A stretch of DNA of 64,000 nucleotides, from assembly GCF_033026475.1 (NCBI RefSeq), contig NC_090210.1:20255376-20319375 (forward strand). The letters are read 5' to 3'. Position 1 is the stretch's first letter. Each line of letters begins with the position of its first letter. The position numbers and the translations under genes were made by a program. The stretch is from Channa argus (taxonomy: Eukaryota). Of the stretch, positions 25,249-64,000 are shown piece by piece. The notes under the pieces were generated by a model. That model worked only from the letters and a program-made list of their open reading frames with translations. It was not told the origin of the DNA and searched no databases.

Positions 25249-26130
25249 TCAAGCATTGACAAACACCAGGCGTGTGGAGTAGATCAGGTCAGCCAGGTAG
25301 AGGATGAAGTTGACAGCACTGAGCACAGCCACTGTCATGCACTTGTCCCACGGACACAGCCCGTATGAGCTGCTGCACACGTATGGCCTATCTTTTGTTC
25401 CACCGTGCTTGGGGTCAAAGTTGAAGATGGGCCAGATGATGGCAGCTGACAGATAGAGGGCCACAGCCAGCAGGGCATAGGCAGACAGGAAGCGGGCAAA
25501 TGAGAAGGGGAGGCAGCCGGTGCATTCGCCTATGCACAGCAGGATGATGGCAGCCGACAGGATGAAGCAGATGCAGTAGACGGCCATGCAGTACTTGAGT
25601 GCATCGTGACGGTCGTACAGCACAGGGTCGCTGATAAACACAAAGATGATGCAGGCCACGAAGGTCTCACATACTTTCATCAGGCCAGGGGCTGTGGCCA
25701 TGTAACCAGCCACCTCGCCTGGACGCGCCTTGCTGATGCTCACTTCACTTATGTAGGCAATGGTGGCCAGGCAGGAGAAGACGGTTGACACAATGCGGTA
25801 GTCGCGTACGTCACTCTGGCCTGTGGATCCCTTGAGGAAGTAGAGAGGGAAGATGATGGAGGCAGACAGGCAGAGTAAGGCAGCGTAGCAGGCAAAGGTG
25901 ATTGGGAAGTTCTTCCAGGAGACAGGAGCTCTGGTCTGAAGGCCAAACAGCTCCACCAGGATGACAAGCAGCGTCCCTCCAAAGCTAAAGGCCCAGCAGA
26001 AGATGCACCAGTCTCCCGTGCCGTGAAGGACTCTGGCACCATGCACTGCCACGGACAACGCCACACAGGAGAAGACCATGGCTGCCAACCGTGTCCATAG
26101 GAGAGGGCTTGAGTGGAGGACTATAGCCAT
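25249..26130 (-). CDS. myadm: MYADM-like protein (myeloid-associated differentiation marker family, MARVEL-domain tetraspan repeats), intronless 293-aa ORF
   Basis: ORF 25249..26130 on the - strand. Collinear with human MYADM: [24 protein letters not shown] matches [52 protein letters not shown] matches [28 protein letters not shown]; and the C-terminal [18 protein letters not shown]...LVFV also aligns. Paralogue assignment is not resolved. Confidence 0.85.
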   Translation of the reverse strand: [293 protein letters not shown]

Positions 26131-34950: not shown

Positions 34951-36060
34951 GAGGAAAATGGCCAACACACCGAGTCCACATGTTTTCTATGGTACTTCAT
35001 ATTTTCTTCGCCTAATATTGTATTGGTCCCCCTCGTTCAGCCAAAACAGCTCTGACCCGTTGAGGCATGGACTCCACAAAACCTCTGAATGTGTCCTCTG
35101 GTATCTGACACCAAGATGTAAGCAGCATATCCCTAAAGTCCTGTAAGTTTTGAGGTGGAGCCTCCGAGGATTGGGCTTGTTTTTCCAGAAAATCCCACAG
35201 ATGCTCGATGGGGTTGAGATCGGGAGACTTTGGAGGCCAAGGCAGCACCTGAAACTCTTGGTCATGTTCCTCAAACCATTCTTGAACAACTTTTGCACTG
35301 TGGCACGGAGCATTATCCTGCTGAAAGAGGCCACTCCTGTCAGAGAATACTGCCGTCATGAAGGGGTGCACATGGTCCGCAACGATGTTCAGGTAGGTGG
35401 TACCTGTCAAATTAACATCCACATGAACGCAAACACCCAGTGTTTCCCAGCAGAATATTGCCCACAGCGTCACACTGCCTCTGCTGCCTTGACTTCTTTC
35501 CATAGTACATTCTTGTGCCATTTCTTCCCCAGGTAGGCGAAGCACATGCACCCGGCCGTCTACGTGATGCAACAGAAATCGGGATTCGCCAGACCAGGCC
35601 ACCTTCTTCCACTGCTCAATGGTCCAGTTTTGACGCTCACGTGCCCAGTGTAAACGTTCTTGGCGGTGGACGGGGGTCAGGATGCTGCAAAGCAGCATGT
35701 TTTCAGATTGCTGTTCATCAAATGCAGCATCTAAATTGTCAGCAATTTGCTTTGTAGTAGCTTTTCTGTGCGATCGCCCACTTTTGGCGACCTTTTTCTC
35801 GGCTCGTGCAGGAATGACTTCCGGGCGACCATGACCCTGCTGCCGGTTCAGTGGTTGTCCATCCTTGGACCACTTTTTGTAGATACTGACCACTGCAGAC
35901 TGAGAACACCCCACAAGTTCTGCTGTTTGTGAGATGCTCTGACCCAGTTGTCTTGCCATCACAATCTGGCCTTTGTCAAAGTCACTAAGGTCCTCACTGT
36001 CCTCCATTTTTCCTGCTTCCAGCACTTTCCTATTACCTGGAAAAGAAAGTAGGTTCAATT
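34951..36060 (-). mobile_element. Tc1-like DNA transposon copy A (3' end and complete transposase ORF present; 5' TIR not identifiable)
   Basis: 98-99% nucleotide identity to copy B over 34951-36058 versus 38552-39653. The similarity ends right at the transposase ATG. Confidence 0.8.
35012..36058 (-). CDS. Tc1/mariner-family transposase, intact 348-codon ORF (DDE: WSGESRF...FQQDNAPCH...NPIEHLWD)
   Basis: ORF 35012..36058 on the - strand, open reading frame with no internal stops. Carries the HTH N-terminal region ([27 protein letters not shown]) and the DD(34)E catalytic motifs typical of Tc1-like transposases. Confidence 0.85.
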
Positions 36061-38551: not shown

Positions 38552-39655
38552 GAGGAAAATGGCCAACACACCGAGTCCACATGTTTTCTATGGTACTTCA
38601 TATTTTCTTCGCCTAATATTGTATTGGTCCCCCTCGTTCAGCCAAAACAGCTCTGACCCGTTGAGGCATGGACTCCACAAAACCTCTGAATGTGTCCTCT
38701 GGTATCTGACACCAAGATGTAAGCAGCATATCCCTAAAGTCCTGTAAGTTTTGAGGTGGAGCCTCCGAGGATTGGGCTTGTTTTTCCAGAAAATCCCACA
38801 GATGCTCGATGGGGTTGAGATCGGGAGACTTTGGAGGCCAAGGCAGCACCTGAAACTCTTGGTCATGTTCCTCAAACCATTCTTGAACAACTTTTGCACT
38901 GTGGCACGGAGCATTATCCTGCTGAAAGAGGCCACTGCTGTCAGAGAATACTGCCGTCATGAAGGGGTGCACATGGTCCGCAACGATGTTCAGGTAGGTG
39001 GTACCTGTCAAATTAACATCCACATGAATGCAAGCACCCAGTGTTTCCCAGCAGAATATTGCCCACAGCGTCACACTGCCTCTGCTGCCTTGACTTCTTT
39101 CCATAGTACATTCTTGTGCCATTTCTTCCCCAGGTAGGCGAAGCACATGCACCCGGCCGTCTACGTGATGCAACAGAAATCGGGATTCGCCAGACCAGGC
39201 CACCTTCTTCCACTGCTCCATGGTCCAGTTTTGACGCTCATGCGCCCAGTGTAAACGTTCTTGGCAGTGGACGGGGGTCAGGATGCCACGAAGTAGCGCG
39301 TTTTCAGATTGCTGTTCATCAAATGAAGCATTTAAATTGTCAGCAATTTGCTTTGTAGTTGCTTTTCCATGCGATCGCCCACTTCTGGCGACCCTTTGCT
39401 CGGCACGTGCAGGAATGACTTCCAGGCGCCCATGACCCTGCTGCCGGTTCAGTGGTTGTCCATCCTTGGACCACTTTTTGTAGATACTGACCACTGCAGA
39501 CTGAGAACACCCCACAAGTTCTGCTGTTTGTGAGATGCTCTGACCCAGTTGTCTTGCCATCACAATCTGGCCTTTGTCAAAGTCACTAAGGTCCTCACTG
39601 TCCTCCATTTTTCCTGCTTCCAAAGCATTAACGTTTAAGAACCCACTGTTCACTT
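38552..39655 (-). mobile_element. Tc1-like DNA transposon copy B (paralogous to copy A)
   Basis: See copy A. It lies at the start of the duplicated block 38552-43400. Confidence 0.8.
38613..39653 (-). CDS. Tc1/mariner-family transposase, intact 346-codon ORF (copy B)
   Basis: ORF 38613..39653 on the - strand. Differs from copy A by a handful of residues and carries the same DDE motifs. Confidence 0.85.
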
Positions 39656-44206: not shown

Positions 44207-45244
44207 CTAATATTGCAACTGCTCCTCTTCTGCTGCCAAGACCGCTCTGACCCGTTGAGGCATGGTTTCCACAAGACCTTTAAATGTGTCCTCTGGTATC
44301 TGGTACCAGAATGTCAGCAGTTTATCATTTAAATCCTGCAAGTTCTTAGGTACAGTCTCCATGGATTGAACCAGTTTTTCCAGCACATCCCACAGATGCT
44401 CGAAGGGATTAAGATCAGGGGCATTTGGAGGCCACGGTAATGGCTTGAACTCGTTTTCATGTTCCTCAAAAAATTCCTGACCAATTTTTGCCTTTTGGCA
44501 GGGCACATTATCCTGCTGAAAGAGGCCACTGCCATCAGGGAATAGCTTTGCCATGAAGGTGTGTACTTGGTCTGCAACCGTGTTTAGGTAGGTGGTACGT
44601 GGCAAAGTAGTATCCACATGAATGCAAGGACCAATTGTTTCCCAGCAGAATATTGCCCACAGTGTCACGCTGCCTCCGCCAGCTTGACCTTCCACAGTGC
44701 AGGCCTGTGCCATCTCTTCCCCAGTTAAACGATGGACACGCACCTGATTGTCTTTATGATGTAGGCGAAATTGTGATTCCCCAGACCAGGCCACCTTTTT
44801 CCATTGCTCAGTGGTCCAATGCTGATATTCATATGCCCACTGTAGGCTGTTTTGGTGGTAAAGAGGGGTCAGCCTAGGTACCCTGATCCTTCTGCGCCTA
44901 CGCAGCCCCATACGCAGCAAGCTGCGATGCACTGTGTGTTCCGACACCTGTTGATCAAAGCCAGCATTAAACTGTTCGGCAATTTCTGCTACAGTAGCTT
45001 TTTTGTTGGACTGGACCAGATGGGCGACCCTTCGCTCAGCACGTGCATCGATAAGCCTCGGTCGTCCATGACCCTGTCGCCGATTTACTGGCTGACCTTC
45101 TTTTATCCACTTTTTATAGGTACTGACCACTGCACAGCGGGAACACCCCACCAGACCTGCTGTTTGGGAGATACTCTGACCAAGTCGCCTAGCCATCACA
45201 ATTTGGCCTTTGTCAAAGTCACTCAGATCCTTGTTCCTGCCCAT
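44207..45244 (-). CDS. Tc1/mariner-family transposase of a second, divergent subfamily; intact 345-codon ORF
   Basis: ORF 44207..45244 on the - strand ([27 protein letters not shown]...WSGESQF...FQQDNVPCQ...NPFEHLWD). About 60% amino-acid identity to copies A and B. TIRs not identified. Confidence 0.8.
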   Translation of the reverse strand: MGRNKDLSDFDKGQIVMARRLGQSISQTAGLVGCSRCAVVSTYKKWIKEGQPVNRRQGHGRPRLIDARAERRVAHLVQSNKKATVAEIAEQFNAGFDQQVSEHTVHRSLLRMGLRRRRRIRVPRLTPLYHQNSLQWAYEYQHWTTEQWKKVAWSGESQFRLHHKDNQVRVHRLTGEEMAQACTVEGQAGGGSVTLWAIFCWETIGPCIHVDTTLPRTTYLNTVADQVHTFMAKLFPDGSGLFQQDNVPCQKAKIGQEFFEEHENEFKPLPWPPNAPDLNPFEHLWDVLEKLVQSMETVPKNLQDLNDKLLTFWYQIPEDTFKGLVETMPQRVRAVLAAEEEQLQY

Positions 45245-50893: not shown

Positions 50894-51365
50894 GTATGTG
50901 CAAATTCCATATTTCACTACGTTACAATAGACCATTTTTTCATTTAGAGTTGGAAAGTCCAACATTAATGTCCAAAAATTTATATTATACTCTTAGAAAG
51001 CTGCACACAGTATGTTTGCATTAACAAAAGTGGCTGGTTCGTGATGTTTTACATCAAAGGACAATAAAGATGGAGAACTTCAGAAGACAAAAAAAAAAGT
51101 TCTATGGATGAGCAACGTACTCGTTGCTGTTTTGTCCCTCAACTTTTAAGCCTCACTTTCATGTCCCTCCTCTAACTTCCCTGTTTTTGCAGTTTCCATC
51201 AAATGAAACAATAGCGTGCTCATTTAATGCTAATGATTGCAATCAACATAACTTTGTACTGCATGAAACAAAATACAGGTACAGGTGTCTGAATCAAAAC
51301 ATGTACTTCACTTTACCGTATCTCGAAGAATTAGGGAATCATTTTGCATTTCTTTCCGCTACCAG

Positions 51366-51796
51366 GGATTGTGCTGGGCCGTCACGGTGGTGCCATGAAA
51401 CAAATGCTACTGCCTTTCTGGCTCGGCCTCGGGGGCACTCTGGGGTCTGGGACACAGCCGTTCCCCTGGATTCACGTCTCGGACCTGGCAGGAATTATCG
51501 CTCATGGCCTGGAGCCTCCAGCTAACACCCTCTCCTCTTCACCACAAGTCTTTAACGGAGTCGCACCTGGATTGAATACCAACTATGAGTTCACTAAAGA
51601 ACTGGGCCGGATTCTGAGACGGCCCACCATTTTTCCTGTACCAGTTTTCGTCCTGAATACCCTGATGGGCTCTGAGAGGGCTGTGGTCCTCACCCAGGGC
51701 CAGAAAGTCATACCAAAGAGAACTCTAGAAGCTGGATATCTGTACAAGTACCCAGACCTGACCTCAGCACTGAAGGAGATTGTCGAGAGCTATTAG
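51366..51796 (+). CDS. sdr39u1: sdr39u1 terminal exon (..IVLGRHGGAMKQMLLPFWLGLGGTLGSGTQPFPWIHVSDLAGII...KVIPKRTLEAGYLYKYPDLTSALKEIVESY*)
   Basis: Acceptor ccgctaccag|GG. Open frame to TAG at 51794-51796, as in ORF 51344..51796. Matches human GSGHQFFPWIHIGDLAGIL...GQKVIPQRTLATGYQYSFPELGAALKEIVA. Confidence 0.85.
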
Positions 51797-52190
51797 ACTT
51801 CATAAGAATGTGTGTAATTTATAAATATACACAATCATGTCTATATATTTACTGTACTATATATGAGGACAATATGTACAGAAATAAGAACTGACCAAGA
51901 ACTTGACATCTGTTAACTATGTGGGTTTCTTCTGGATTGTGTAAGTTAAAGTCCAGGATTACAGCAAACATTTTATAAGGCTGGTGCACAATAAAGTTGG
52001 GTAAAGAGCAAGAATATGAGATTTTATTGAAGTAATTCTGTTACTAGTTTTCCAATGAGTCAGAATTTTACTATTCCCAATGAGGAAAGCACGGTACTAT
52101 TTAACCAACAGCTGATGTGTCTTTAGACAACAGTCCTATCTCAGTGTGAGTTCATGCTTCCACTGTGTAAAGACGACGACTCTGGCTGAA

Positions 52191-52281
52191 TCATCCCTCT
52201 GAATCACCGTCCTCCTCGACCTTCTGAAACATCGGCATTTGATCTCCCCAGTCACTACTCCGGGCACAGCGGTACACATCT
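52191..52281 (-). CDS. mettl17: mettl17 exon 14 (terminal): (R)DVYRCARSSDWGDQMPMFQKVEEDGDSEG*
   Basis: Matches human RDLYRCARVSSWGDLLPVL. TGA is the reverse complement of 52191-52193. Acceptor ccag|A. Confidence 0.8.
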
Positions 52282-52632
52282 CTGGTTAAAGAAAGGGATG
52301 GAAGTTTCAAACAAATAGAGTATTGCATAAAGGTTCCACAGCAAAATTATTTTTACAAACTAGATCACATTCATATGAGGTTTGGCTTTTTTTCTTTTTT
52401 TAATCGAGTTAAACAATTTAGACCAATTTAAAACCACAAACTTGCGGGTTTTTTTCAGGATATTACTTGATTTTGTTAGAAAAAGTTCATGAACTACAAT
52501 GTTTGTAGTGGTTGGCGCTGGTCTTGGCACTTGTACAAGGAAAAGAAAAAAAAATCAACTCAAATCAAACCCACACATTCAAAACTAAAAGCTACTACAG
52601 ATGGGTTTGACAGTGTGTGAGATGACTTTTAC

Positions 52633-52829
52633 CTGCTTTGTTTTCGAGCCGTCACCACCACATGTTGTAGTTGTCCATCAGAGCAGCACATCCGACAGTG
52701 GACGTGTCTCGTTCTGCGTTGCACCGGAGCGATCAGCCTGGCCCAGTCCACACCTTCTGTTTCTGGCCCCGCTGGTTCTGTCCGAGTCAGAATCAAGTAG
52801 CTGAACTTCTCTCTCTGACGATCATTGTG
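52633..52829 (-). CDS. mettl17: mettl17 exon 13 (HNDRQREKFSYLILTRTEPAGPETEGVDWARLIAPVQRRTRHVHCRMCCSDGQLQHVVVTARKQS)
   Basis: Matches human [57 protein letters not shown]. Acceptor ccccag|CAC, donor AG|gtaaaa. Confidence 0.85.
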
Positions 52830-53214
52830 CTGGGGAAATGCTTATTTTTTTAAATTTAAGCTTTATTGTCATTATTGAGTACATATGCAGGTTATTTGTA
52901 ATATTTGTTCTGTGTTTAACTCCTCGCCCTGTAGAAAGCAGTGGGCAGTCACAGGGACCAGGGAGCTTCTGTCTCATTCCAGGACACACCTGGTGGGTGA
53001 GCTGGTATGTGACGATGCAGACTTCTGCATCCCAGTCTGATGGTATGGGAAATCGAATCTATTGAATCTATAAATGCTTTTTGGATCATGTATTCATGGA
53101 ATGCTGAATGGTCCAGTTATTTCCAAAAGGCACAAATAAGCTGATGAAATAATTTCTGACTCTTGGGTAATAATACATGGCTGTAACCAGACGTGTAATC
53201 AAGTCCAATCTTAC

Positions 53215-53307
53215 CCCAGGCAGAGGCAAAGGATGGTAAAGTTGCTGAAAGTTGCAGGGTATGACTGGCTCACGGCCAAGTTTAGGACACGTCAGCTCGT
53301 GTGGACA
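53215..53307 (-). CDS. mettl17: mettl17 exon 12 (CPHELTCPKLGREPVIPCNFQQLYHPLPLPG)
   Basis: Matches human [28 protein letters not shown]. Acceptor tttccag|TGT, donor GGG|gtaaga. Confidence 0.8.
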
Positions 53308-53392
53308 CTGGAAAGAAGACGTAATAAAGCTGTGACACTGTCTAAAGAAACTATGTGGTGATATTTTAAACCCAGCTAGGACATAAACATAC

Positions 53393-53443
53393 TGGAGCAA
53401 ACACTGATGCTGGTCTGGAGTCATGGACAATCTTCTCTTGTTT
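53393..53443 (-). CDS. mettl17: mettl17 exon 11 (KQEKIVHDSRPASVFAP)
   Basis: Matches human KGKEKSPLDPRPGFVFAP. Acceptor gtctccag|AAA, donor CCA|gtatgt. Confidence 0.75.
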
Positions 53444-53551
53444 CTGGAGACAGAGAAACAAAAACCGTAGGCTGTTTCCATTAACTGCACCTATTTAAAC
53501 TCCCACATGAGCATTTGGAATTTTTTAAAATATATTTATGTGTATAAATAC

Positions 53552-53620
53552 ATTTAATAAAGTGTCTCTGGCCTCCATAAGCATTTGATGACCTTCTTTT
53601 GTCCCATTTTCTACCAACAC
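53552..53620 (-). CDS. mettl17: mettl17 exon 10 ([23 protein letters not shown])
   Basis: Matches human [24 protein letters not shown]. Acceptor ttgttatag|GTG, donor AAT|gtattt. Confidence 0.8.
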
Positions 53621-53745
53621 CTATAACAAAAGAAGAAAAAAAAACAAAGCTCTAGTGCAGTATGTTCACTAAAGATGCAAAGAAAATAGGATCTCACACA
53701 CACTAACTATCCACAGACATATTAATTATCATTATTTCAACCCAC

Positions 53746-53853
53746 CAGATATGAGCTTGTCTTCCTCCACAGCGTGAACACAGCATCTTCTCTGTCTTTC
53801 CCACTCGGAAGCTCCGACAGGGTGAAGGCTGCGACCACCAAGTCGAACTGCAC
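53746..53853 (-). CDS. mettl17: mettl17 exon 9 ([36 protein letters not shown])
   Basis: Matches human [36 protein letters not shown]. Acceptor cctctcag|GTG, donor CTG|gtgggt. Confidence 0.85.
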
Positions 53854-54378
53854 CTGAGAGGAGAAACACTGCACCATCAGAGCTCCTTTATTTTCTACAT
53901 CATCGACCTCATAAGTACTAAATCCCTGAACGCTAATCTAATTGTGAAAGACTTCGCACAATTTTAATTTGTTTCGCTGAAAGTGGGATCAAACCTTTAT
54001 TTCTCATGATGAAGGTTTGAATTTCATTTCTCACTGTCAAGGAACTGAGGCAAACATAATTTATATAAGCTACCTTGTTTTCAAGTTTTTTTTAAAATAA
54101 AGAATAAAACAACAATTTAAAAAATTTGTTACAAATGTCAAAACTTAACCATGTCAGAGTGATCTGGTCCAAAAATGGTGATCACTGCATCATTTTTCAA
54201 AACACAACTGAACTTTTTTTTTTTTTTTTAATCACTGCAATTGCTATTATCAAAAACAGTGTATTAAAAACATGCAACGTTCTAATACTGACTGTAGAAA
54301 AATTACTAATGCACAATGCACACATTTTGTTGGCACTCAGGTTAATGCTAACTGAATTAAAACCAGACCGGATTTTAC

Positions 54379-54449
54379 CTTTGGAGAGACAGGGAGGAAC
54401 TGCCTAAAATAGACGTGTTTGATGTAAGGTTCAGCGCTTTCGTCATCAC
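54379..54449 (-). CDS. mettl17: mettl17 exon 8 ((G)[23 protein letters not shown])
   Basis: Matches human [24 protein letters not shown]. Acceptor gttgagcag|GT, donor AAG|gtaaaa. Confidence 0.8.
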
Positions 54450-54539
54450 CTGCTCAACAAAAAAACAAAAATGCTTGTCTGAAGGTTGTCCGAGGGACTA
54501 CTGGACTACAAGAAAAAAAAAAAGTGTTTGTGTGTGCAC

Positions 54540-54634
54540 CTTTGAGAAGTCGTTCTGCCAGAATGTTCATCGGTCCAGAGCTGTCCACACACACCATCTC
54601 TTTCAAAGTGTCACCCCAGCATGAGTGCGACGCC
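54540..54634 (-). CDS. mettl17: mettl17 exon 7 ((W)ASHSCWGDTLKEMVCVDSSGPMNILAERLLK)
   Basis: Matches human [31 protein letters not shown]. Acceptor ctgcag|G, donor AAA G|gtgcac. Confidence 0.8.
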
Positions 54635-54725
54635 CTGCAGAAAAAACAGACGGAGATTGAATTCAGGGGTCTGGTAATTTAGACACAAACTCTATAAATA
54701 ATACAGCAATTTTTTTTAGACTAAC

Positions 54726-54799
54726 CACACAACGGATCCCAGCCCTGAACCAAAATCCAGGAGAGACTGAGGGGCAAAAGAAGGATCCCGCTTCTTAAT
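54726..54799 (-). CDS. mettl17: mettl17 exon 6, SAM-binding motif I (IKKRDPSFAPQSLLDFGSGLGSVV)
   Basis: Matches human [24 protein letters not shown] (Rsm22/METTL17 methyltransferase motif I). Donor TG|gttagt. Confidence 0.85.
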
Positions 54800-55000
54800 C
54801 TGGTATAGAAAAAAAATATCATTTATGAGGGATAAAGGTAAAAGTTTAATCCCTGATCCTATGCTGATGTCATAATTCTCAGTAATCAGTAAACGTATGT
54901 TGTCATTTCCCATGTTTTACCAGTATACATGTAAAGATATGTTTTCAGTGATCCCTGGTACCATGTGAGTTAGTTTCTAATCCTCACGACTTGCTCATAC

Positions 55001-55082
55001 CTCATTCAAAGCTCTCCTCACCGCTGCATAGCCCCCAGCCAGCCGAGCTGCCATGTATACCACACCTAATTCTTCATCATAC
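55001..55082 (-). CDS. mettl17: mettl17 exon 5 ((K)YDEELGVVYMAARLAGGYAAVRRALNE)
   Basis: Matches human [26 protein letters not shown]. Acceptor gtgtttcag|G, donor GAG|gtatga. Confidence 0.8.
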
Positions 55083-55471
55083 CTGAAACACAGAGTGACC
55101 TGTAAATAAACTCAGCTAAATCTTAGGCTTAACTGGGAGAGATACCAGTAGAAAGCCCCGAAACGTCACTCCACCTCTGGTTTTGTGCAAAGGTTGATTT
55201 ACAGACAGTGCAATATTCTTATGTATGGAAATTCTTAACTTTGAACGTGTCAGTATGATATCTTCTGTGTGATCTTAAAGCTCCAAAGGTGGCACAAATT
55301 TTAAGTTGCATAAATAAGACTTGCTAGTAAAAGATGCTCTTTTTATCCAATTGGAAATTTGTGAAATTCACAGAGGACTTTTCTGAATGCATTCATGCTT
55401 CAATAAAATCCCATACTTTTATGCAAAGTATTCTTATATGAAAAAGTGTGTAGATAAAAAGTGAGTGTTAC

Positions 55472-55559
55472 TTCATTGGAGTCCAGTGATAGGTTGTTCT
55501 TCTAAGCTCTGAAAACACTTTTTTCCTGATGCGATCTTCCAGTGCTTGCTCATCTACAT
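55472..55559 (-). CDS. mettl17: mettl17 exon 4 ((D)VDEQALEDRIRKKVFSELRRTTYHWTPM)
   Basis: Matches human [22 protein letters not shown]. Acceptor atcgcag|AT, donor AA|gtaaca. Confidence 0.75.
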
Positions 55560-56193
55560 CTGCGATATAAAAGGACATTTATTTTTCAGTTCAACTTTAA
55601 AAAAGAAATTTCGTTAACGCCATTGAATTGAGTGACATTTGTGCATATTTTAGAAAATGTCACTATGTTATAATGTCTTTAAGTCCTGTTACAGATAAAA
55701 TTACAAGTCATTTGCAGAAATGTGGCAGGAAATGTGAAATTTGGTATTGGAAATGTAGATTGTTTAGTTTATAGCCTCTAAGTCACTGTGTGGAAAGGTT
55801 TCTAGAGTAGCTTTTCAGACAGTGACAATGGCTTATGACCAGAGTGAAGAGTGTGACAGAGAGTGCAGAAGCTTTTTAAGGACAAAAACAACTGTGACTG
55901 TTTTTAGTATAGAACTAGACTATGATGTGACTGCTACCCCCTAGACAACGGTCTGCTAAAGAGGCTGAGGTTTTAGTTAACGTTACAAGTCTGTCAAGTC
56001 TTAGAGAAAGCCCTCAGGTTTTAGGGAGGTGTCTTTAACCAATGCTTAGGTTTTAAAGGTATCTAAGGTCTTAGTGGGTTAAACAGTTTGAAATTGATGA
56101 GTAAATAAAAAAAATTACTTTAGATTAATTTCCATAGTTGCTGCATTATATAATTATATAATCATTTGTAGATTTTTGCACTATGCCACTCAC

Positions 56194-56343
56194 CTCCTCT
56201 TTTTGCCATCGCTTTCTCCCAAAGTTCTTTCTCCAAGCTCACAGCTTTCTGCCTCAGAGTCACATCCTCAACTGGCCGTTTCCTGCTCCACAGGATGTTT
56301 GTGAGGCTGCGAATGCGGTCAGTCAGTCGAGCCACCTGAGCTC
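56194..56343 (-). CDS. mettl17: mettl17 exon 3 ((R)AQVARLTDRIRSLTNILWSRKRPVEDVTLRQKAVSLEKELWEKAMAKRG)
   Basis: Matches human [38 protein letters not shown]. Acceptor ctag|GA, donor G|gtgagt. Confidence 0.8.
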
Positions 56344-56444
56344 CTAGACGTGGAAGGATTCAAAACACAGCATTTATAGAAATGTATTTTGGGACCAGTG
56401 AAGCTAGTATATCAGTGCATAGTTCTAATCAGAAGTAAACTTAC

Positions 56445-56586
56445 TGTGAATAATAGATTGTGCAGCCATCTGGAGTTCCTCAGGTAGGTGCAGTGTTTTC
56501 AGGTTCGTCACACCTGGGTGCTTCTTGTGTGGTTCTCCTTTAAGGAAATCTGCCTGTGAATGTGGGTGTGTGGCTACACTCATTCC
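56445..56586 (-). CDS. mettl17: mettl17 exon 2 (GMSVATHPHSQADFLKGEPHKKHPGVTNLKTLHLPEELQMAAQSIIH)
   Basis: Matches human [34 protein letters not shown]. Acceptor catcctcag|GGA, donor CAC A|gtaagt. Overlaps ORF 56425..56625 on the - strand. Confidence 0.8.
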
Positions 56587-57218
56587 CTGAGGATGACAGA
56601 TACAATTGAATGTCTCCTTTATCACCTCTTTAAACAGTAGCTAAACAGTTTTAAAGTAATGGACAATTTTAAACCTAACAATCTCTCATTATAGCAATGA
56701 ATTTTTGGACGTATTATCTAAAAGATTTTTCACTTTACATTCTTAAAATCATAATACTCTTGTTCACACATATAATAATTCAACTTGTATGTATATGAAA
56801 TATCCAATTCTAGAACTGTACGCAAACAGTACCAACAGATTTCAAACACCAAAAACCTTATCACGAGAATTGTGCCTGTTGTAGTTGGTAAGTAACTTAA
56901 CGCTGCTCATACATTTTCACAAGTTATTAATACAGAAATTTCCTGGTAGTAAAAAAAAAGAAAATGTACACAAATAACGTTACACACAGTCTATGGAAAG
57001 CAATGATTTTGCAGGTCATTAACATTTTGGCACAAAATAGAAAAATCTATGAACAATGATGACACGGCTAGCACACAAATGAAGAAAGATGACAAGAAAT
57101 AAATATGAACATTTGCTGTTCATCTTTATTGTGAACACACAAATCAGTTGAACTGTTTTCTGTCTGACCTCCGAGATACAGAAGTTCCGTAGCAATGACA
57201 CCTACCGACAGTACTCAC

Positions 57219-57287
57219 CCTAAACAGCATCCTCACGACAGCCGCCCCCTGACAGAGGACACCGGCGCCGTAGCTCCGTGAAGCCAT
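57219..57287 (-). CDS. mettl17: mettl17 exon 1 (MASRSYGAGVLCQGAAVVRMLFR), probable mitochondrial presequence
   Basis: ATG is the reverse complement of 57285-57287. Donor AGG|gtgagt. Arg-rich, acid-free N-terminus. Phase 0 into exon 2. Confidence 0.75.
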
Positions 57288-58151
57288 TTCTTTGGATTTT
57301 GAAATTTATTGTGTTAACTTAAAACATTGAACGAAACGGAGCACGTTAGACATTCATCCATCCTTCTGCAAAATAATTCCGACCCTCGAGTAAAGCGGAA
57401 CGTTTGATTTCAATGTTTTGTTCCCATTCATAGTTGACAAAAGAGTGCTCACTCTGTTTTTTTATATTGCTTTTTCTTCACTGCAATTCAATGAATAATA
57501 TACTTTGAACTCCACTACATTTCTGTGACAAGTTGTCCTAGTTAGCAGATGTGAGTTATTAACACAAATCCTAATTTATAAGGCTTTACCACCTGCATAT
57601 TTACGTGTTATTACTTTGTTATACTTCACAAAGATGGTTGTTGGTAACAGAGATCGTAGGCTCTTATTTGTCATTTGTAGAAAATTGTATTTGCGATATA
57701 TTTCATGTTTTAAAGTTCGTTTGTAGTGTGCAGCACACATGTTAAAGGAGGTCACAATTTATAATTCTTATTTCTAAAAATGTTCGTGTGTGTGGATTCT
57801 TTTCAGTTAATCGAAGAAAATCTGAATGGGAGAAATTAAATCAACATTAGGGAATGAAATTCTCAGAAATGTTAGGAGCCATTCACTCCTTAAATCAGTA
57901 CATTAAACATATTTTAGAAGACATGACCATTTAAAAAACGGGTATGTTACTTCTTCTTGGCTAAAGTGAAGTACGCTTGCGTCAAGGTTACGCTGCGTTT
58001 TGTTTTAATCACGGAGTGATCCATCTTCACGATAAACGATCTCTGGTTGTACCGGCCAGGAAACGGCGGTGTAGTTAGGAGGTTTTCCCGCTGTTGTCAC
58101 TGTTGTCCAATAGTTACCGCAACTACCTTATTGTTTTTCCCTTAAACCACC
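57288..58151. promoter_or_regulatory. 864 bp head-to-head intergenic region, putative bidirectional promoter shared by mettl17 (-) and parp2 (+)
   Basis: Start codons at 57287 (- strand) and 58152 (+ strand). Contains ccaatag (CCAAT-like) and ggaaacggcgg (ETS-like) within 100 bp of the parp2 ATG. No RNase P RNA-like conserved regions (CR-I/CR-V motifs) were found. Confidence 0.5.
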
Positions 58152-58224
58152 ATGAGGCGAACAAGGGGTTCGGGAAAAAAAAGTCAGAATGCAACAGAAA
58201 GTAACAAAGTACCGTCCAAAACAG
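58152..58224 (+). CDS. parp2: parp2 exon 1 (MRRTRGSGKKSQNATESNKVPSKT), basic N-terminal region
   Basis: ATG at 58152. Donor ACA G|gttggt (phase 1). Basic, like human PARP2 MAARRRRSTGGGR... Confidence 0.7.
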
Positions 58225-58832
58225 GTTGGTTTAATGCTGGAACGTGGAAATGATAAGCTAACGTTAGCTTACTTTACGTTAACGTAGAATTGGGAAGAGG
58301 ACGACAGAGACAGAAAAAGTCATATGATTGAATGTGTAGCTAACATTATTTTTGCTTCATACTGGCTTTAATCTTGTTAAATGAGTTTCTAGGGAACGAC
58401 TAACTTTCTGCTTCGTTTGATAGTTTCACTGCTGCCCCTCTTTATTAATACACGCCAAGTTGTAACGTTACTTTATTCACAGCCAGATTGCTAACTAAGG
58501 TAAGTAACTGCAAAGTAAAAGTACCTCAACGCAACACTCTAATAAACATGCGAGTTCGCCTAAGAAGGTAAATATAGAAGTACCCGTTTCAATTCTACAT
58601 GCTTTAAACTTCAGATGGTTTCCTAATATTTTTTGGAACTGTGCATCTTTCAGTCTGCTGTGACATTTTAGGAGCGCTGTTTTTTTTTTGTTTTTTTTTG
58701 GGATCTCTACCTAAGAGTTCATCATCTCAATCATAAAAATCACAATCTTACAGACACCACAACCAAAGACAAGTCAGACTGAACTAATATGTTAGAATTA
58801 TGAACAATGAATTTCGCAAGTAGAGTTATTTG

Positions 58833-58853
58833 GTGTGTGTGTGTGTGTGTGTG

Positions 58854-58883
<30 letters not shown>
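58833..58883. repeat. Compound microsatellite (GT)n(AT)n(AC)n in parp2 intron 1
   Basis: Direct reading. Confidence 0.9.
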
Positions 58884-58884
<1 letters not shown>

Positions 58885-59187
58885 TGTTTTGGGTTTCATT
58901 CACAGAGCTGCTGAACTGTGGAACACTCACAGTAACACTGAACAAGGCAAACATGAAAAAGCCTACTTACAACAGCACCACTACTGAAAAACAATCCTGG
59001 GGGGAAAAGTGAAAAGCTTATTTGAATGTGTCATATTCCTTCTACTCAATTTGACCCTTTATGTAATATCAATGAAAACAAGCCAATTGGGTGCTGCACA
59101 TCACTGAAGTGAAACATTTTAAAAGGAGAAAATGGGTATTGTGAACTCACCTCACATTTGTGCTATAAACTGGAAAGGAACTTAAAG

Positions 59188-59189
<2 letters not shown>

Positions 59190-59247
<58 letters not shown>
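59190..59247. repeat. (TA)n microsatellite in parp2 intron 1
   Basis: Direct reading. Confidence 0.9.
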
Positions 59248-59249
<2 letters not shown>

Positions 59250-59405
59250 CAACCTTTTACCTAATAGAAATATGGGCCATAAATCAGTAATTTGGTGTTA
59301 AAAATGCAGGATATTAACAAATGCCAGTTACAAATCTTGACATGTAAGTAAACAGAATGTTAAATCCTGTAGTGATAGACAGCCCCACTCTCTGTGTGTG
59401 ATCAG

Positions 59406-59615
59406 TGTGGCAGTGGAAGGGGAATGAGGGGCAGTGGGAACCATATCCTCCTTCAGCCTGTACCTTGTTGGACTCAGCAGTGTCTGCAGGGAAAACGTCT
59501 GTCACTCTGACCTTTGGCTCTGGGACACCCTATGACGTCGACCTGAAGAAAATGTTCCAGATAAACCCTGTCACAAAGTATAAGAGGAAGATTCGCTGTC
59601 AGATAGTAAAACCAG
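59406..59615 (+). CDS. parp2: parp2 exon 2: WWE domain (VWQWKGNEGQWEPYPPSACTLLDSAVSAGKTSVTLTFGSGTPYDVDLKKMFQINPVTKYKRKIRCQIVKP)
   Basis: Acceptor gtgtgatcag|TG, donor CCA G|gtgtgt. Phase 1 to 1, matching exon 1 (G+TG=GTG) and exon 3 (G+AA=GAA). Open 70-codon frame. The WWE signature W-x-W-x5-W-x2-Y...YxVDL..M.Q.N..T...R.IRC is present. Confidence 0.65.
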
Positions 59616-60004
59616 GTGTGTGTTACTGTGTGTGTTGTGCTATGTCGGCTGCTATTTTGTCCTATAGACTGCTTGGATTTTTGCTATTGTGTGTTAGTTT
59701 GTATTTTAATACTGACGCCATGTTAATTTCTATTTAGGTCCTTTTAATCACCATATCCAAACATGTCAGAGGGCTACAAAAGCAGTTCAATTTCCTAATA
59801 ATATATTTGTACATAGTACTATTACAACAACTTTTGCTTTTTTATATGTTCCATGGTTTAATTATTTTGTTTGATTTACTCGATGTTCTGTTAAGTGTTC
59901 AACAAATACAAAATATTAAGAGCTTATTAGTATTTTCTGTATTGATAAATATACAACTTACTGACACCATTAAAATTGTATTTCTGTTCTCTTCTTGTGT
60001 TTAG

Positions 60005-60172
60005 AAAGTTTAAGTGATGCAGACAACTCAGATGCTCACAATGAACGGCCAGTTCAAGTTAAAGAGGAAGACGAGGAGCCGGAAGAGAAACCTGCAGCTA
60101 AGAGGAGGAGAGGAAAAAGCAGGAGTCAGACGAAGACAGAAGAAATACCCAAAGAAGAAATAAAAAATGAAG
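60005..60172 (+). CDS. parp2: parp2 exon 3 (ESLSDADNSDAHNERPVQVKEEDEEPEEKPAAKRRRGKSRSQTKTEEIPKEEIKNE), acidic/basic linker with NLS-like KRRRGK
   Basis: Acceptor tgtgtttag|AA, donor GAA G|gtaaat. Confidence 0.75.
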
Positions 60173-60365: not shown

Positions 60366-60436
60366 AATCTGTGAAGATAGTGGTCATGAAGGGCAAAGCT
60401 CCGGTGGACAATGAATGCAAAGCCAAACTTGGAAAG
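60366..60436 (+). CDS. parp2: parp2 exon 4 ((E)SVKIVVMKGKAPVDNECKAKLGK)
   Basis: Matches human SVKALLLKGKAPVDPECTAKVGK. Acceptor gacag|AA, donor AAG|gtatca. Confidence 0.85.
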
Positions 60437-60694: not shown

Positions 60695-60745
60695 GCTCAT
60701 GTTCACTGTGAAGGAAAAGATGTTTATGATGTTATGTTAAACCAG
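60695..60745 (+). CDS. parp2: parp2 exon 5 (AHVHCEGKDVYDVMLNQ)
   Basis: Matches human AHVYCEGNDVYDVMLNQ. Acceptor tcccttag|GCT, donor CAG|gtaata. Confidence 0.9.
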
Positions 60746-61097: not shown

Positions 61098-61194
61098 ACA
61101 AATCTTCAGTTTAACAACAACAAATACTACCTGATCCAGCTGCTGGAAGATGACAGCTCCAAGGTTTACAGCGTGTGGATGAGATGGGGCAGAG
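61098..61194 (+). CDS. parp2: parp2 exon 6, WGR domain part 1 (TNLQFNNNKYYLIQLLEDDSSKVYSVWMRWGR)
   Basis: Matches human TNLQFNNNKYYLIQLLEDDAQRNFSVWMRWGR. Acceptor tttgcag|ACA, donor AGA G|gttctt. Confidence 0.9.
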
Positions 61195-61334: not shown

Positions 61335-61410
61335 TGGGCAAAGTGGGTCAAAACAGCCTTGTAGCCTGTGGTGGAGACCTGTTAAAAGCCAAAGATATCT
61401 TCAAGAAAAA
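61335..61410 (+). CDS. parp2: parp2 exon 7, WGR part 2 ((V)GKVGQNSLVACGGDLLKAKDIFKKK)
   Basis: Matches human VGKMGQHSLVACSGNLNKAKEIFQKK. Acceptor tgtcag|TG, donor AA|gtgaga. Confidence 0.85.
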
Positions 61411-61483: not shown

Positions 61484-61586
61484 ATTCTTTGACAAGACCA
61501 AGAATGAGTGGGAACACCGGTCGAATTTTGAGAAAGTGGCTGGAAAATATGATATGGTGTTTATGGACTACAGCACAAATGAGAAG
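61484..61586 (+). CDS. parp2: parp2 exon 8 ((K)FFDKTKNEWEHRSNFEKVAGKYDMVFMDYSTNEK)
   Basis: Matches human FLDKTKNNWEDREKFEKVPGKYDMLQMDYATNTQ. Acceptor ccacag|A, donor AAG|gtacat. Confidence 0.85.
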
Positions 61587-61690: not shown

Positions 61691-61844
61691 GAGGAGAATC
61701 GGACAACAGTGGATACTGCACCTAAACAGAGGACCTCCAAGCTGGATGTGAAGATCCAGTCTCTCCTGGAGCTCATTTGTGACCTCAAAGCCATGGAGGA
61801 GTGTGTGCTGGAAATGAAGTTTGACATTCGGAAAGCACCTCTTG
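61691..61844 (+). CDS. parp2: parp2 exon 9, helical regulatory domain start (EENRTTVDTAPKQRTSKLDVKIQSLLELICDLKAMEECVLEMKFDIRKAPL)
   Basis: Matches human SQLDLRVQELIKLICNVQAMEEMMMEMKYNTKKAPLG. Acceptor cttttag|GAG, donor CTT G|gtgagt. Confidence 0.85.
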
Positions 61845-62098: not shown

Positions 62099-62237
62099 GC
62101 AAACTGACCTCAGAGCAGATTCGTGCAGGCTACACTGCACTGAAGAGAATTGAGCTGTGTTTGCAGAAGAAGGGCAGTAATCGAGAATTGGTGGAGGCCT
62201 GCAACCAATTCTACACCCGCATCCCACATGACTTTGG
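62099..62237 (+). CDS. parp2: parp2 exon 10 ((G)KLTSEQIRAGYTALKRIELCLQKKGSNRELVEACNQFYTRIPHDF)
   Basis: Matches human KLTVAQIKAGYQSLKKIEDCIRAGQHGRALMEACNEFYTRIPHDFG. Acceptor ttttcaag|GC, donor GG|gtagga. Confidence 0.85.
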
Positions 62238-62328: not shown

Positions 62329-62392
62329 GCTGAAAACTCCCCCAGTCATTCGCACAGAAGAAGAGCTCAAGGAGAAAATTGCACTACTAGAG
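62329..62392 (+). CDS. parp2: parp2 exon 11 ((G)LKTPPVIRTEEELKEKIALLE)
   Basis: Matches human LRTPPLIRTQKELSEKIQLLE. Acceptor ctctccag|G, donor GAG|gtgaag. Confidence 0.85.
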
Positions 62393-62477: not shown

Positions 62478-62612
62478 GCATTGAGTGACATCCAGATTGC
62501 AGTAAAAATGGTTCAGTCAAGCAAAGACAGTCATGAACACCCCCTAGACAGACAGTATCATTCCCTCCAGTGCAAACTGGAGCCTCTGGACTCCAGTAGC
62601 CATGAGTATAAG
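62478..62612 (+). CDS. parp2: parp2 exon 12 (ALSDIQIAVKMVQSSKDSHEHPLDRQYHSLQCKLEPLDSSSHEYK)
   Basis: Matches human ALGDIEIAIKLVKTELQSPEHPLDQHYRNLHCALRPLDHESYEFK. Acceptor gctctcag|GCA, donor AAG|gtctgt. Confidence 0.85.
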
Positions 62613-63212: not shown

Positions 63213-63340
63213 GTGATAGAAAAGTATCTGCAGTCCACTCACGCCACCACTCATAATGACTACACCATGACTATCCTTGACATCTTCTCAGTGGACAGAG
63301 ACAGAGAGGGCAAGAACTTTCTCTCACAGTTACATAACCG
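63213..63340 (+). CDS. parp2: parp2 exon 13 (VIEKYLQSTHATTHNDYTMTILDIFSVDRDREGKNFLSQLHN)
   Basis: Matches human VISQYLQSTHAPTHSDYTMTLLDLFEVEKDGEKEAFREDLHNR. Acceptor gtgttgaag|GTG, donor CG|gtatta. Confidence 0.85.
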
Positions 63341-63537: not shown

Positions 63538-63637
63538 AACTTTGCTGTGGCATGGTTCCCGATTGTCTAACTGGGTTGGTATCCTCAGTCAGGGGCTCAG
63601 AGTGGCCCCGCCTGAAGCTCCCATCACAGGCTACATG
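63538..63637 (+). CDS. parp2: parp2 exon 14, catalytic domain start ((R)[33 protein letters not shown])
   Basis: Matches human [33 protein letters not shown] (H-G-S of the ART fold). Acceptor gtaccag|A, donor ATG|gtatga. Confidence 0.9.
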
Positions 63638-63955: not shown

Positions 63956-64000
63956 TTTGGTAAAGGCATCTACTTTGCTGACATGTCATCTAAGAGCGCC
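63956..64000 (+). CDS. parp2: parp2 exon 15, partial, runs off the window end (FGKGIYFADMSSKSA...)
   Basis: Matches human FGKGIYFADMSSKSANY. Acceptor ctgctgtag|TTT. Confidence 0.85.

Follow-up and report, generated by a model that had tools for sequence, protein, structure and literature searches.

The WWE-encoding second exon of Channa argus parp2 and its relationship to the tandem WWE domains of other animal PARP2 proteins

Results

The parp2 gene and its second exon

The DNA analyzed here is a 64,000-nt stretch of the Channa argus genome (RefSeq assembly GCF_033026475.1, contig NC_090210.1, positions 20,255,376 to 20,319,375 of the forward strand), referred to below as the window. Its downstream end carries a parp2 gene on the plus strand, truncated at the window end, and our subject is the second exon of this gene, which encodes a WWE domain. 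An earlier note on this DNA, made from the sequence alone, had singled it out as an extra exon of fish parp2. Comparison with related sequences identifies it as a real, used coding exon and as the orthologue of the second WWE domain (WWE2) of PARP2 proteins that carry two WWE domains in tandem.

The gene model was assembled by inspection and then checked by translation, with AG/GT at all boundaries. Exon 1 (58152-58224, plus strand, 73 nt) starts with the ATG at 58152, encodes the basic N-terminal peptide MRRTRGSGKKSQNATESNKVPSKT, and ends in phase 1; the teleost PARP2 proteins P0001-P0003 and P0079-P0082 share the N-terminus MRRTRSS.... Exon 2 (59406-59615, plus strand, 210 nt) encodes the whole WWE domain as amino acids 25-94. 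It lies between the acceptor ...gtgatcag/TG and the donor CAG/gtgtgt, is open by translation in one frame only, beginning at 59408, and has phase 1-1, which fits both the end of exon 1 and exon 3, itself phase 1-1. The open reading frame (ORF) runs beyond the donor as far as 59737. With exon junctions marked by slashes, the joined frame reads MRRTRGSGKKSQNATESNKVPSKT/VWQWKGNEGQWEPY...KRKIRCQIVKP/ESLSDAD.../ESVKIVVMKGKAPVD.... Exon 3 (60005-60172, plus strand, 168 nt) contributes a linker with an acidic stretch and the basic segment KRRRGKSRSQTK, a probable nuclear localization signal; it is homologous to the N-terminal region of mammalian PARP2 and has an orthologous exon in the paddlefish gene (L002 13916-14113).

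The remaining exons, also on the plus strand, encode the domains by which the gene can be named. Exons 4-8 (60366-60436, 60695-60745, 61098-61194, 61335-61410, and 61484-61586) carry the SVK..KGKAPVD motif and the WGR domain, and their product (amino acids 160-288) matches the human PARP2 WGR chains 6f5b/6f1k with E about 1e-64. Exons 9-15 (61691-61844, 62099-62237, 62329-62392, 62478-62612, 63213-63340, 63538-63637, and 63956-64000, the last cut by the window end) encode the helical regulatory domain and the start of the ADP-ribosyltransferase domain, with amino acids 299-538 matching PARP2 catalytic-fragment structures (4zzx, 3kcz, and others) at E about 1e-108. For the catalytic triad H-Y-E, the His (LLWHGSR) and Tyr (GIYFAD) motifs are found inside the window, while the Glu position falls past 64000. 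The 538-residue partial protein matches full-length human PARP2 (PDB 6x0l_P) at 620 bits (E=3.8e-185), above its scores of 328 bits for PARP1 and 143 bits for PARP3. By these matches the gene is PARP2, a clade 1 DNA-dependent PARP, and not PARP1 or PARP3. The alignment with human PARP2 starts only at fish residue 117, inside exon 3, and residues 25-94 find no counterpart in it.

Much of the description in the earlier note is borne out by this model. Its coordinates, exon length, splice sites, phase, and peptide were correct, as were its assignment of the exon to parp2, now backed by the match of the downstream exons to human PARP2, and its statement that human PARP2 has no WWE domain. It had placed the exon directly between the basic N-terminal exon and an SVK..KGKAPVD exon at 60366-60436. 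The latter exon was correctly located, but it is the fourth of the gene, and the linker exon at 60005-60172 intervenes, as the note's own list of checks implied.

Evidence that exon 2 is used and coding

The window was compared with three teleost genomic contigs from Logan (L004-L006). Within 59384-59619 four-way identity is 0.4-0.7; immediately beyond this interval, on either side, it does not exceed 0.2 and is mostly 0-0.1. The CAG/TG acceptor and CAG/GT donor are retained in all four teleost sequences, and pairwise ratios of nonsynonymous to synonymous substitution rates (dN/dS) in exon 2 are 0.09-0.13, with dS near or greater than 1.

A Logan contig of 2593 nt (L001, run SRR11928275) represents a spliced fish PARP2 mRNA with 5' and 3' untranslated regions. 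Its frame reads MRRARSTRNK...ESKT-VWSWKGDD...KIRSQTIKT-EAVKENGG...KGKAPVD...WGR...PARP through to the stop codon, giving the order N-terminus, WWE, linker, WGR, PARP_reg, PARP. A single in-frame TAA (ECKA-stop-LGK) interrupts the conserved ECKAKLGK motif at about nt 580-590, which led the gene caller to make two ORFs; this is probably an assembly or sequencing error.

Public protein sets contain the exon as well. More than ten teleost gene models named PARP2 in GenBank/UniProt include exon 2, and precomputed Pfam annotation pairs WWE with WGR or PARP both in entries named PARP2 (Oryzias melastigma, Ataeniobius toweri, Clarias magur, and Liparis tanakae) and in entries under other names (Xiphophorus couchianus, Serrasalmus, Champsocephalus, Albula, and Prochilodus). 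The database proteins closest to the window protein are 68-77% identical to it over the N-terminus. Judged by this conservation, the spliced contig, and the gene models, exon 2 is a real, used coding exon of teleost parp2.

Some public models have problems around the WWE exon. Those of Pungitius (P0004), Notothenia (P0039), and Mobula (P0007) show, respectively, a chimera of WWE and a seven-transmembrane receptor, a WWE exon placed inside the PARP2 catalytic domain, and a ray N-terminus named "E3 ubiquitin-protein ligase DTX4-like".

Predicted fold and ligand-contact residues of the WWE domain

The 70-residue exon 2 peptide, in which the earlier note had recognized a WWE signature by eye, scores 66.8 bits against the Pfam WWE hidden Markov model PF02825 (E=2.2e-18; cut-off 21.1 bits), covering profile positions 2-66 of 67. 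Its sequence matches in the PDB are WWE domains only, from DTX1, TRIP12, HUWE1, Drosophila Deltex, and RNF146; the top match is the tandem WWE of DTX1 (E=7e-10, both repeats), and the RNF146 match is weak (E=0.075). An AlphaFold2 model of the peptide, made with an input alignment of 27 rows of PARP2 WWE segments, has a mean predicted local distance difference test score of 88.5 and the order beta-beta-helix-beta-beta-beta-beta. The predicted structure thus shows the six beta-strands, half barrel, and single alpha-helix on top that define the WWE fold. Foldseek comparison of the model with the PDB at E<0.05 also returned WWE domains only, at template modeling (TM) scores of 0.65-0.89. HUWE1 (0.89), RNF146 with iso-ADP-ribose (0.87), and TRIP12 (0.85, with a root-mean-square deviation of 1.0 Å in a range of 1.0-1.5 Å) head the list, and the WWE domains of PARP13, PARP11, and PARP14 match more weakly (0.65-0.71). 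By sequence profile and predicted structure alike, the product of exon 2 is a genuine WWE domain.

Crystal structures of the HUWE1, TRIP12, DTX1, and RNF146 WWE domains reveal one common recognition mode, in which a Gln pairs with adenine, a Trp (Tyr in RNF146) stacks, and a Tyr and an Arg grip the proximal phosphate (PMC11269756). In our alignment the corresponding residues of the fish domain, W28, Y67, Q76, and R85, are identical to those of HUWE1, TRIP12, and both WWE domains of DTX1. WWE2 of the oyster and of almost every vertebrate protein examined keeps all four; in Narcine WWE2, His occupies the R85 position. The Gln is invariant across all 27 aligned PARP2 WWE sequences.

The specificity of RNF146 for iso-ADP-ribose has been credited to Tyr107, which hydrogen-bonds the distal ribose, and to Arg110, which together with Trp114 belongs to a basic beta-loop-beta element that encloses the distal phosphate (PMC11269756). 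The Tyr107 position is Trp (W28) in the fish exon, as in HUWE1, TRIP12, and DTX1, and Arg110 is matched by Asn31 in this fish and by Asp in the majority of fish and other vertebrates; the equivalent of RNF146 Trp114, Trp35, is present. The numbering of RNF146 residues in this alignment is drawn in part from PMC11269756. Because the adenine and phosphate contacts are intact and the residues specific to iso-ADP-ribose recognition by RNF146 are absent, the fish PARP2 WWE looks HUWE1/TRIP12/DTX-like and not RNF146-like.

Tandem WWE domains in PARP2 and their loss

Two tandem WWE domains, with the same linker and the SVK..KGKAPVD..EC motif, were found in the PARP2 N-termini of paddlefish (P0005), snapping turtle (P0006, named PARP2), manta ray (P0007, mis-named DTX4-like), and a frog-like transcript (P0024). 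A profile search run exhaustively over 1.84 billion representatives, followed by name look-ups and Pfam scans, then recovered the architecture WWE-WWE-WGR-PARP_reg-PARP complete or nearly so from the platypus (RefSeq XP_028933514.1), the electric ray Narcine, the Pacific oyster (XP_011443308), the snail Bulinus, and the nematode Syphacia, and as WWE-WWE-WGR-PARP_reg in the PARP2 of a Leptobrachium frog. Tandem-WWE N-termini also occur in the coelacanth and two further frogs, and profile matches came in addition from snake, limpet, and Plectus entries.

Three frogs and the coelacanth account for four gene models whose PARP2 N-terminus continues into a DNA-binding domain of MADF, zf-BED, or Myb/SANT-like type in place of WGR-PARP: P0107 (Engystomops), P0108 (Ascaphus), P0110 (Latimeria isoform X4), and P0043 (Dendropsophus). 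The N-terminal part comprises both WWE domains, or WWE2 only in the Dendropsophus fragment, together with the linker and the KGKAPVD exon. These may be models mis-joined into intronic transposon-derived ORFs, or real alternative isoforms.

All teleost proteins examined have one WWE domain, and this single domain aligns with WWE2 of the tandem proteins. A tblastn search for a relic of WWE1 in intron 1 and upstream, with five WWE1 queries (paddlefish, turtle, ray, frog, and an invertebrate), returned only the known exon (59408-59605). Two exons of the paddlefish gene together encode WWE1, and a single one (L002 10271-10480) encodes WWE2. This WWE2 exon and that of the turtle (L003 6653-6865) have the same donor as the window exon and an acceptor about 6 nt further upstream.

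The two domains of the tandem proteins differ at one of the ligand-contact positions. In every tandem PARP2 examined (WWE1 segments of P0005, P0007, P0109-P0111, P0114, P0120, P0135, and P0179 were compared), from the nematode and molluscs to the platypus, the phosphate-contacting Tyr is replaced in WWE1 by Leu or Ile, with a gap at this point in the turtle model, but the adenine-pairing Gln is kept. WWE2 keeps the Tyr in most tandem proteins, though not in the snail or nematode. WWE1 and WWE2 are therefore probably not equivalent, and since all four contact residues are present in WWE2 and the Tyr is missing from WWE1, the copy kept by teleosts is the one that looks ligand-competent.

Placental PARP2 entries (human, Myotis, naked mole-rat, and kangaroo rat) have no WWE domain. 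A query with the platypus N-terminus returned only WWE-less placental PARP2 and turtle, and as this word-indexed search gave proteins of at most 507 aa, absences from it are weak. Fish exons 1 and 3 together are the counterpart of the N-terminal region of human PARP2. On these comparisons, the simplest history is that a tandem-WWE PARP2 was present in the bilaterian ancestor, that the WWE1 exons were lost in the teleost lineage, and that all WWE exons were lost after the monotremes split off, leaving placental mammals without either domain. Loss of the WWE exon of the window would leave the frame intact, as this exon and the linker exon are both phase 1-1. Most animals appear to have a PARP2 with its own putative ADP-ribose-reader module.

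Discussion

The WWE exon of fish parp2 is already known. Perina et al. (2014, DNA Repair 23:4-16; PMC4245714) described WWE domains at the N-terminus of non-mammalian PARP2 as "a putative PAR binding module", PAR being poly(ADP-ribose), and the Channa argus exon is the same feature, with no difference in kind from their non-mammalian metazoan examples. That paper is inconsistent on birds, listing "bird" among the taxa with a WWE-bearing PARP2 yet reporting PARP2 as lost in all sequenced birds; no bird PARP2 turned up in the protein searches made here. Among other accounts, Otto 2005 (PMC1266365) placed WWE only in other PARP groups, the family survey of Citarelli 2010 (PMC2964712) placed it only in clades 2 and 3, a 2023 domain re-annotation covers human proteins only (PMC10450202), and a 2024 review of PARP2 nowhere mentions WWE. 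To the published picture our analysis adds that the teleost WWE is WWE2 of an ancestral pair and that the platypus retains both domains, together with a map of the exon structure, the difference in contact residues between WWE1 and WWE2, and the assignment of the domain as HUWE1/TRIP12/DTX-like rather than RNF146-like.

The evolutionary suggestions of the earlier note fared less well than its description of the exon. It had treated the exon as an extra one, or a fish gain; the tandem arrangement in rays, paddlefish, coelacanth, frogs, turtle, platypus, oyster, snail, and nematode shows the WWE domains to be ancestral instead. The proposal of a distinct and possibly unannotated architecture was likewise not supported, given the 2014 publication and the named fish PARP2 entries in GenBank/UniProt. 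Absence from mammalian PARP2 holds for the placental entries and fails for the platypus, whose RefSeq model has both domains. The expectation of iso-ADP-ribose binding agrees with the general adenine and phosphate contacts but not with the two RNF146 specificity residues, which are absent.

With a probability of roughly 0.6, we favor the reading that the used WWE exon, as the surviving WWE2 of the ancestral pair, encodes an ADP-ribose reader that tethers PARP2 to PAR. The protein would carry one WWE domain between a short basic N-terminus and an acidic/basic linker, ahead of the WGR, helical, and catalytic domains. This domain would bind ADP-ribose or the ADP moiety of PAR through stacking by W28, adenine pairing by Q76, and contacts of Y67 and R85 with the proximal phosphate, in the manner of HUWE1, TRIP12, and DTX1 rather than in the high-affinity iso-ADP-ribose mode of RNF146, and its affinity for the ADP-ribose or ADP unit is probably modest. 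It could tether PARP2 directly to the PAR present at DNA lesions, made mainly by PARP1, which would concentrate and possibly activate PARP2 so that existing chains are extended or branched. A folded WWE domain in this N-terminal position may thus perform PAR-dependent recruitment directly.

Work on the human protein provides the background for this proposal. In human cells the arrival of PARP2 follows that of PARP1 and requires PAR made by PARP1; its disordered N-terminal region has been reported to bind PAR, to mediate this PARP1-dependent recruitment, and to be needed for activation and branching (PMC6089979). A PAR-dependent rapid-exchange mode of PARP2 has been described (PMC9023293), and recruitment in human cells via an XRCC1 bridge, involving BRCT domains, has been reported (PMC11838041). 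A broader version of the proposal, which we offer only tentatively, is that ancestral animal PARP2 was a reader-writer in which a ligand-competent WWE2 docked directly on PARP1-made PAR and placed the catalytic domain so that it could extend or branch existing chains, and that therian or placental mammals dropped the WWE domains and now use the basic N-terminus and XRCC1.

Several observations weigh against the favored reading. No binding data or experiment on any PARP2 WWE domain were found in the searchable literature. The WWE domains of DTX1 and DTX2, which have the same four residues, bind ADP-ribose, ATP, and iso-ADP-ribose weakly, with dissociation constants of 190-700 µM (PMC11269756), and TRIP12 binds PAR 11-mers weakly, so conserved contacts do not guarantee a useful affinity. 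Asn or Asp at the Arg110 position and Trp at the Tyr107 position further argue against tight iso-ADP-ribose binding, and some WWE domains are protein-protein binders or do not bind PAR, as for the PARP14 WWE (PMC10450202). Inclusion of the exon in Channa argus itself is deduced from its relatives and from selection, its symmetric phase 1-1 would allow WWE-less isoforms, and a catfish "isoform X2" model (P0012) begins downstream of the WWE.

Some of these points suggest other explanations, of which the strongest, though in our judgment unlikely, is that the WWE is translated but serves as a protein-protein interaction or structural module that does not read ADP-ribose. In Drosophila, the Deltex WWE pair binds the ankyrin repeats of Notch, and the WWE domain of PARP14 has lost PAR binding (PMC10450202); the tandem WWE of DTX1, top PDB sequence match of the fish domain, is the weak ligand binder mentioned above, and the substitution of the WWE1 Tyr by Leu or Ile, or the gap in the turtle, implies that at least one ancestral domain was not a canonical binder. 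Yet teleosts retain exactly the WWE that has all four contact residues, a set conserved in WWE2 from oyster to platypus, the Gln is invariant in 27 of 27 sequences, and the N-terminus of mammalian PARP2 is itself reported to bind PAR (PMC6089979), all of which favor a ligand-binding domain.

The other two alternatives concern the exon rather than the domain. That exon 2 is a cassette exon, included in some transcripts or tissues while the major fish PARP2 is mammal-like and WWE-less, seems to us improbable. Skipping it would preserve the frame, several PARP2 isoforms are found in RefSeq for coelacanth, Narcine, and Thamnophis, and some Ensembl models start after the WWE, as does the catfish isoform; however, the preserved splice sites and a dN/dS of about 0.1 speak for continued use of the exon, the sole full-length fish mRNA contig recovered includes the WWE, and most teleost models have it, many WWE-less entries being obvious fragments. 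That the open frame lies outside parp2 altogether, as a pseudo-exon, a fragment of another WWE gene (Deltex-like), or a chance ORF of intron 1, might be suggested by the DTX4-like name given in GenBank to one ray PARP2 N-terminal fragment (P0007) and by the extension of the ORF past the donor to 59737. This possibility is refuted by the L001 mRNA, which joins the WWE and PARP domains in one frame, by conservation that ends exactly at the splice sites, by orthologous exons in the corresponding position of PARP2 in paddlefish and turtle, and by the full-length tandem proteins of platypus, Narcine, oyster, and nematode.

Comparison with characterized WWE proteins helps to place the proposed PAR reader of fish PARP2. 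The HUWE1 and TRIP12 domains (PDB 6miw, 8rd7, 9bkr, and 9bks) are its best structural matches, at 32% identity and with the same Trp, Tyr, Gln, and Arg contacts, and their counterpart of the RNF146 loop with Arg110 is acidic or neutral, as it is in the fish domain. These two proteins are HECT ubiquitin ligases in which PAR reading directs ubiquitylation, whereas in fish PARP2 a putative reader is fused to a PAR writer. Deltex/DTX1 (PDB 8r5n and 2a90) resembles ancestral PARP2 in having two WWE domains and a short linker, unlike the single-WWE teleost protein, but both DTX1 domains keep the phosphate-binding Tyr that WWE1 of tandem PARP2 lacks, and PARP2 has no RING or DTC domain. RNF146 (PDB 3v3l), the prototype for iso-ADP-ribose recognition, shares the fold, the adenine-binding Gln, and the Tyr/Arg phosphate contacts, and differs at Tyr107 (Trp in fish) and Arg110 (Asn here, Asp in most fish). 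The clade 3 PARPs (PARP7, 11, 12, 13, and 14) and plant RCD1 likewise have a WWE N-terminal to the PARP catalytic domain, but they are mono-ADP-ribosyltransferases or inactive and do not possess WGR and helical domains, in contrast to PARP2, a clade 1 DNA-dependent poly(ADP-ribose) polymerase. Finally, the N-terminal region of human PARP2 (amino acids 1 to about 90) occupies the same position in the protein and is homologous to the product of fish exons 1 and 3, but is disordered and basic, with no folded WWE.

From the standpoint of genome annotation the exon is ordinary and can be predicted correctly. Its wider interest lies in the fact that the standard picture of PARP2, a disordered basic N-terminus followed by WGR, helical, and ADP-ribosyltransferase domains, derives from placental mammals. 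Studies of PARP2 and PARP inhibitors in zebrafish and Xenopus should allow for the fact that PARP2 of these animals differs in domain content from the human protein. If the WWE domain binds PAR, it would offer a direct route for PARP1-dependent recruitment of PARP2 and an evolutionary explanation for the PAR binding reported for the human N-terminal region. Should the reader-writer proposal be true, PARP2 of fish, frog, or platypus would be a natural gain-of-function comparator and could help resolve the disagreement over PAR sensing by mammalian PARP2.

Other features of the window

Upstream of parp2 and head-to-head with it lies an Rsm22/mettl17-like methyltransferase gene (54700-56600, minus strand), one exon of which encodes a ...LLDFGSGLGS... 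S-adenosylmethionine-binding motif. By tblastx, the paddlefish contig L002 has a mettl17-like gene at the same upstream position, also head-to-head, and this common neighbor supports orthology of the two parp2 loci. In mammals, PARP2 and the RNase P RNA gene RPPH1 have a common bidirectional promoter. Such an arrangement beside Channa argus parp2 is ruled out by Rfam scans that detected no RNase P RNA gene at gathering thresholds in the whole window and none at E<=1 in 52000-59400.

The sub-threshold Rfam hits in 52000-59400 are microRNA and small nucleolar RNA models falling on a (GT)n(AC)n repeat at about 58826-58898, in intron 1 of parp2. Here (GT)n, (TA)n, and (AC)n runs adjoin one another in that order and form a perfect hairpin-like palindrome. 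As a candidate RNA gene this palindrome was rejected: its matches to mir-297, mir-466, mir-1277, and others occur on both strands, far under gathering scores, and are repeat artefacts. A (TA)29.5 microsatellite (59189-59247) lies 300 nt downstream of it.

Two unrelated neighboring genes were also noted, a MYADM-like single-exon ORF of 293 aa with two MARVEL-domain matches (25249-26130, minus strand) and a terminal exon with a DUF1731 match, as in SDR39U1-type epimerases (51344-51796, plus strand). The minus strand also carries three transposase ORFs of Tc1/mariner type (345-348 aa) that look intact and have helix-turn-helix (HTH) and DDE_3 domains, at 35012-36058, 38613-39653, and 44207-45244. 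The first two are near identical and 3.6 kb apart, and these elements may be recently active.

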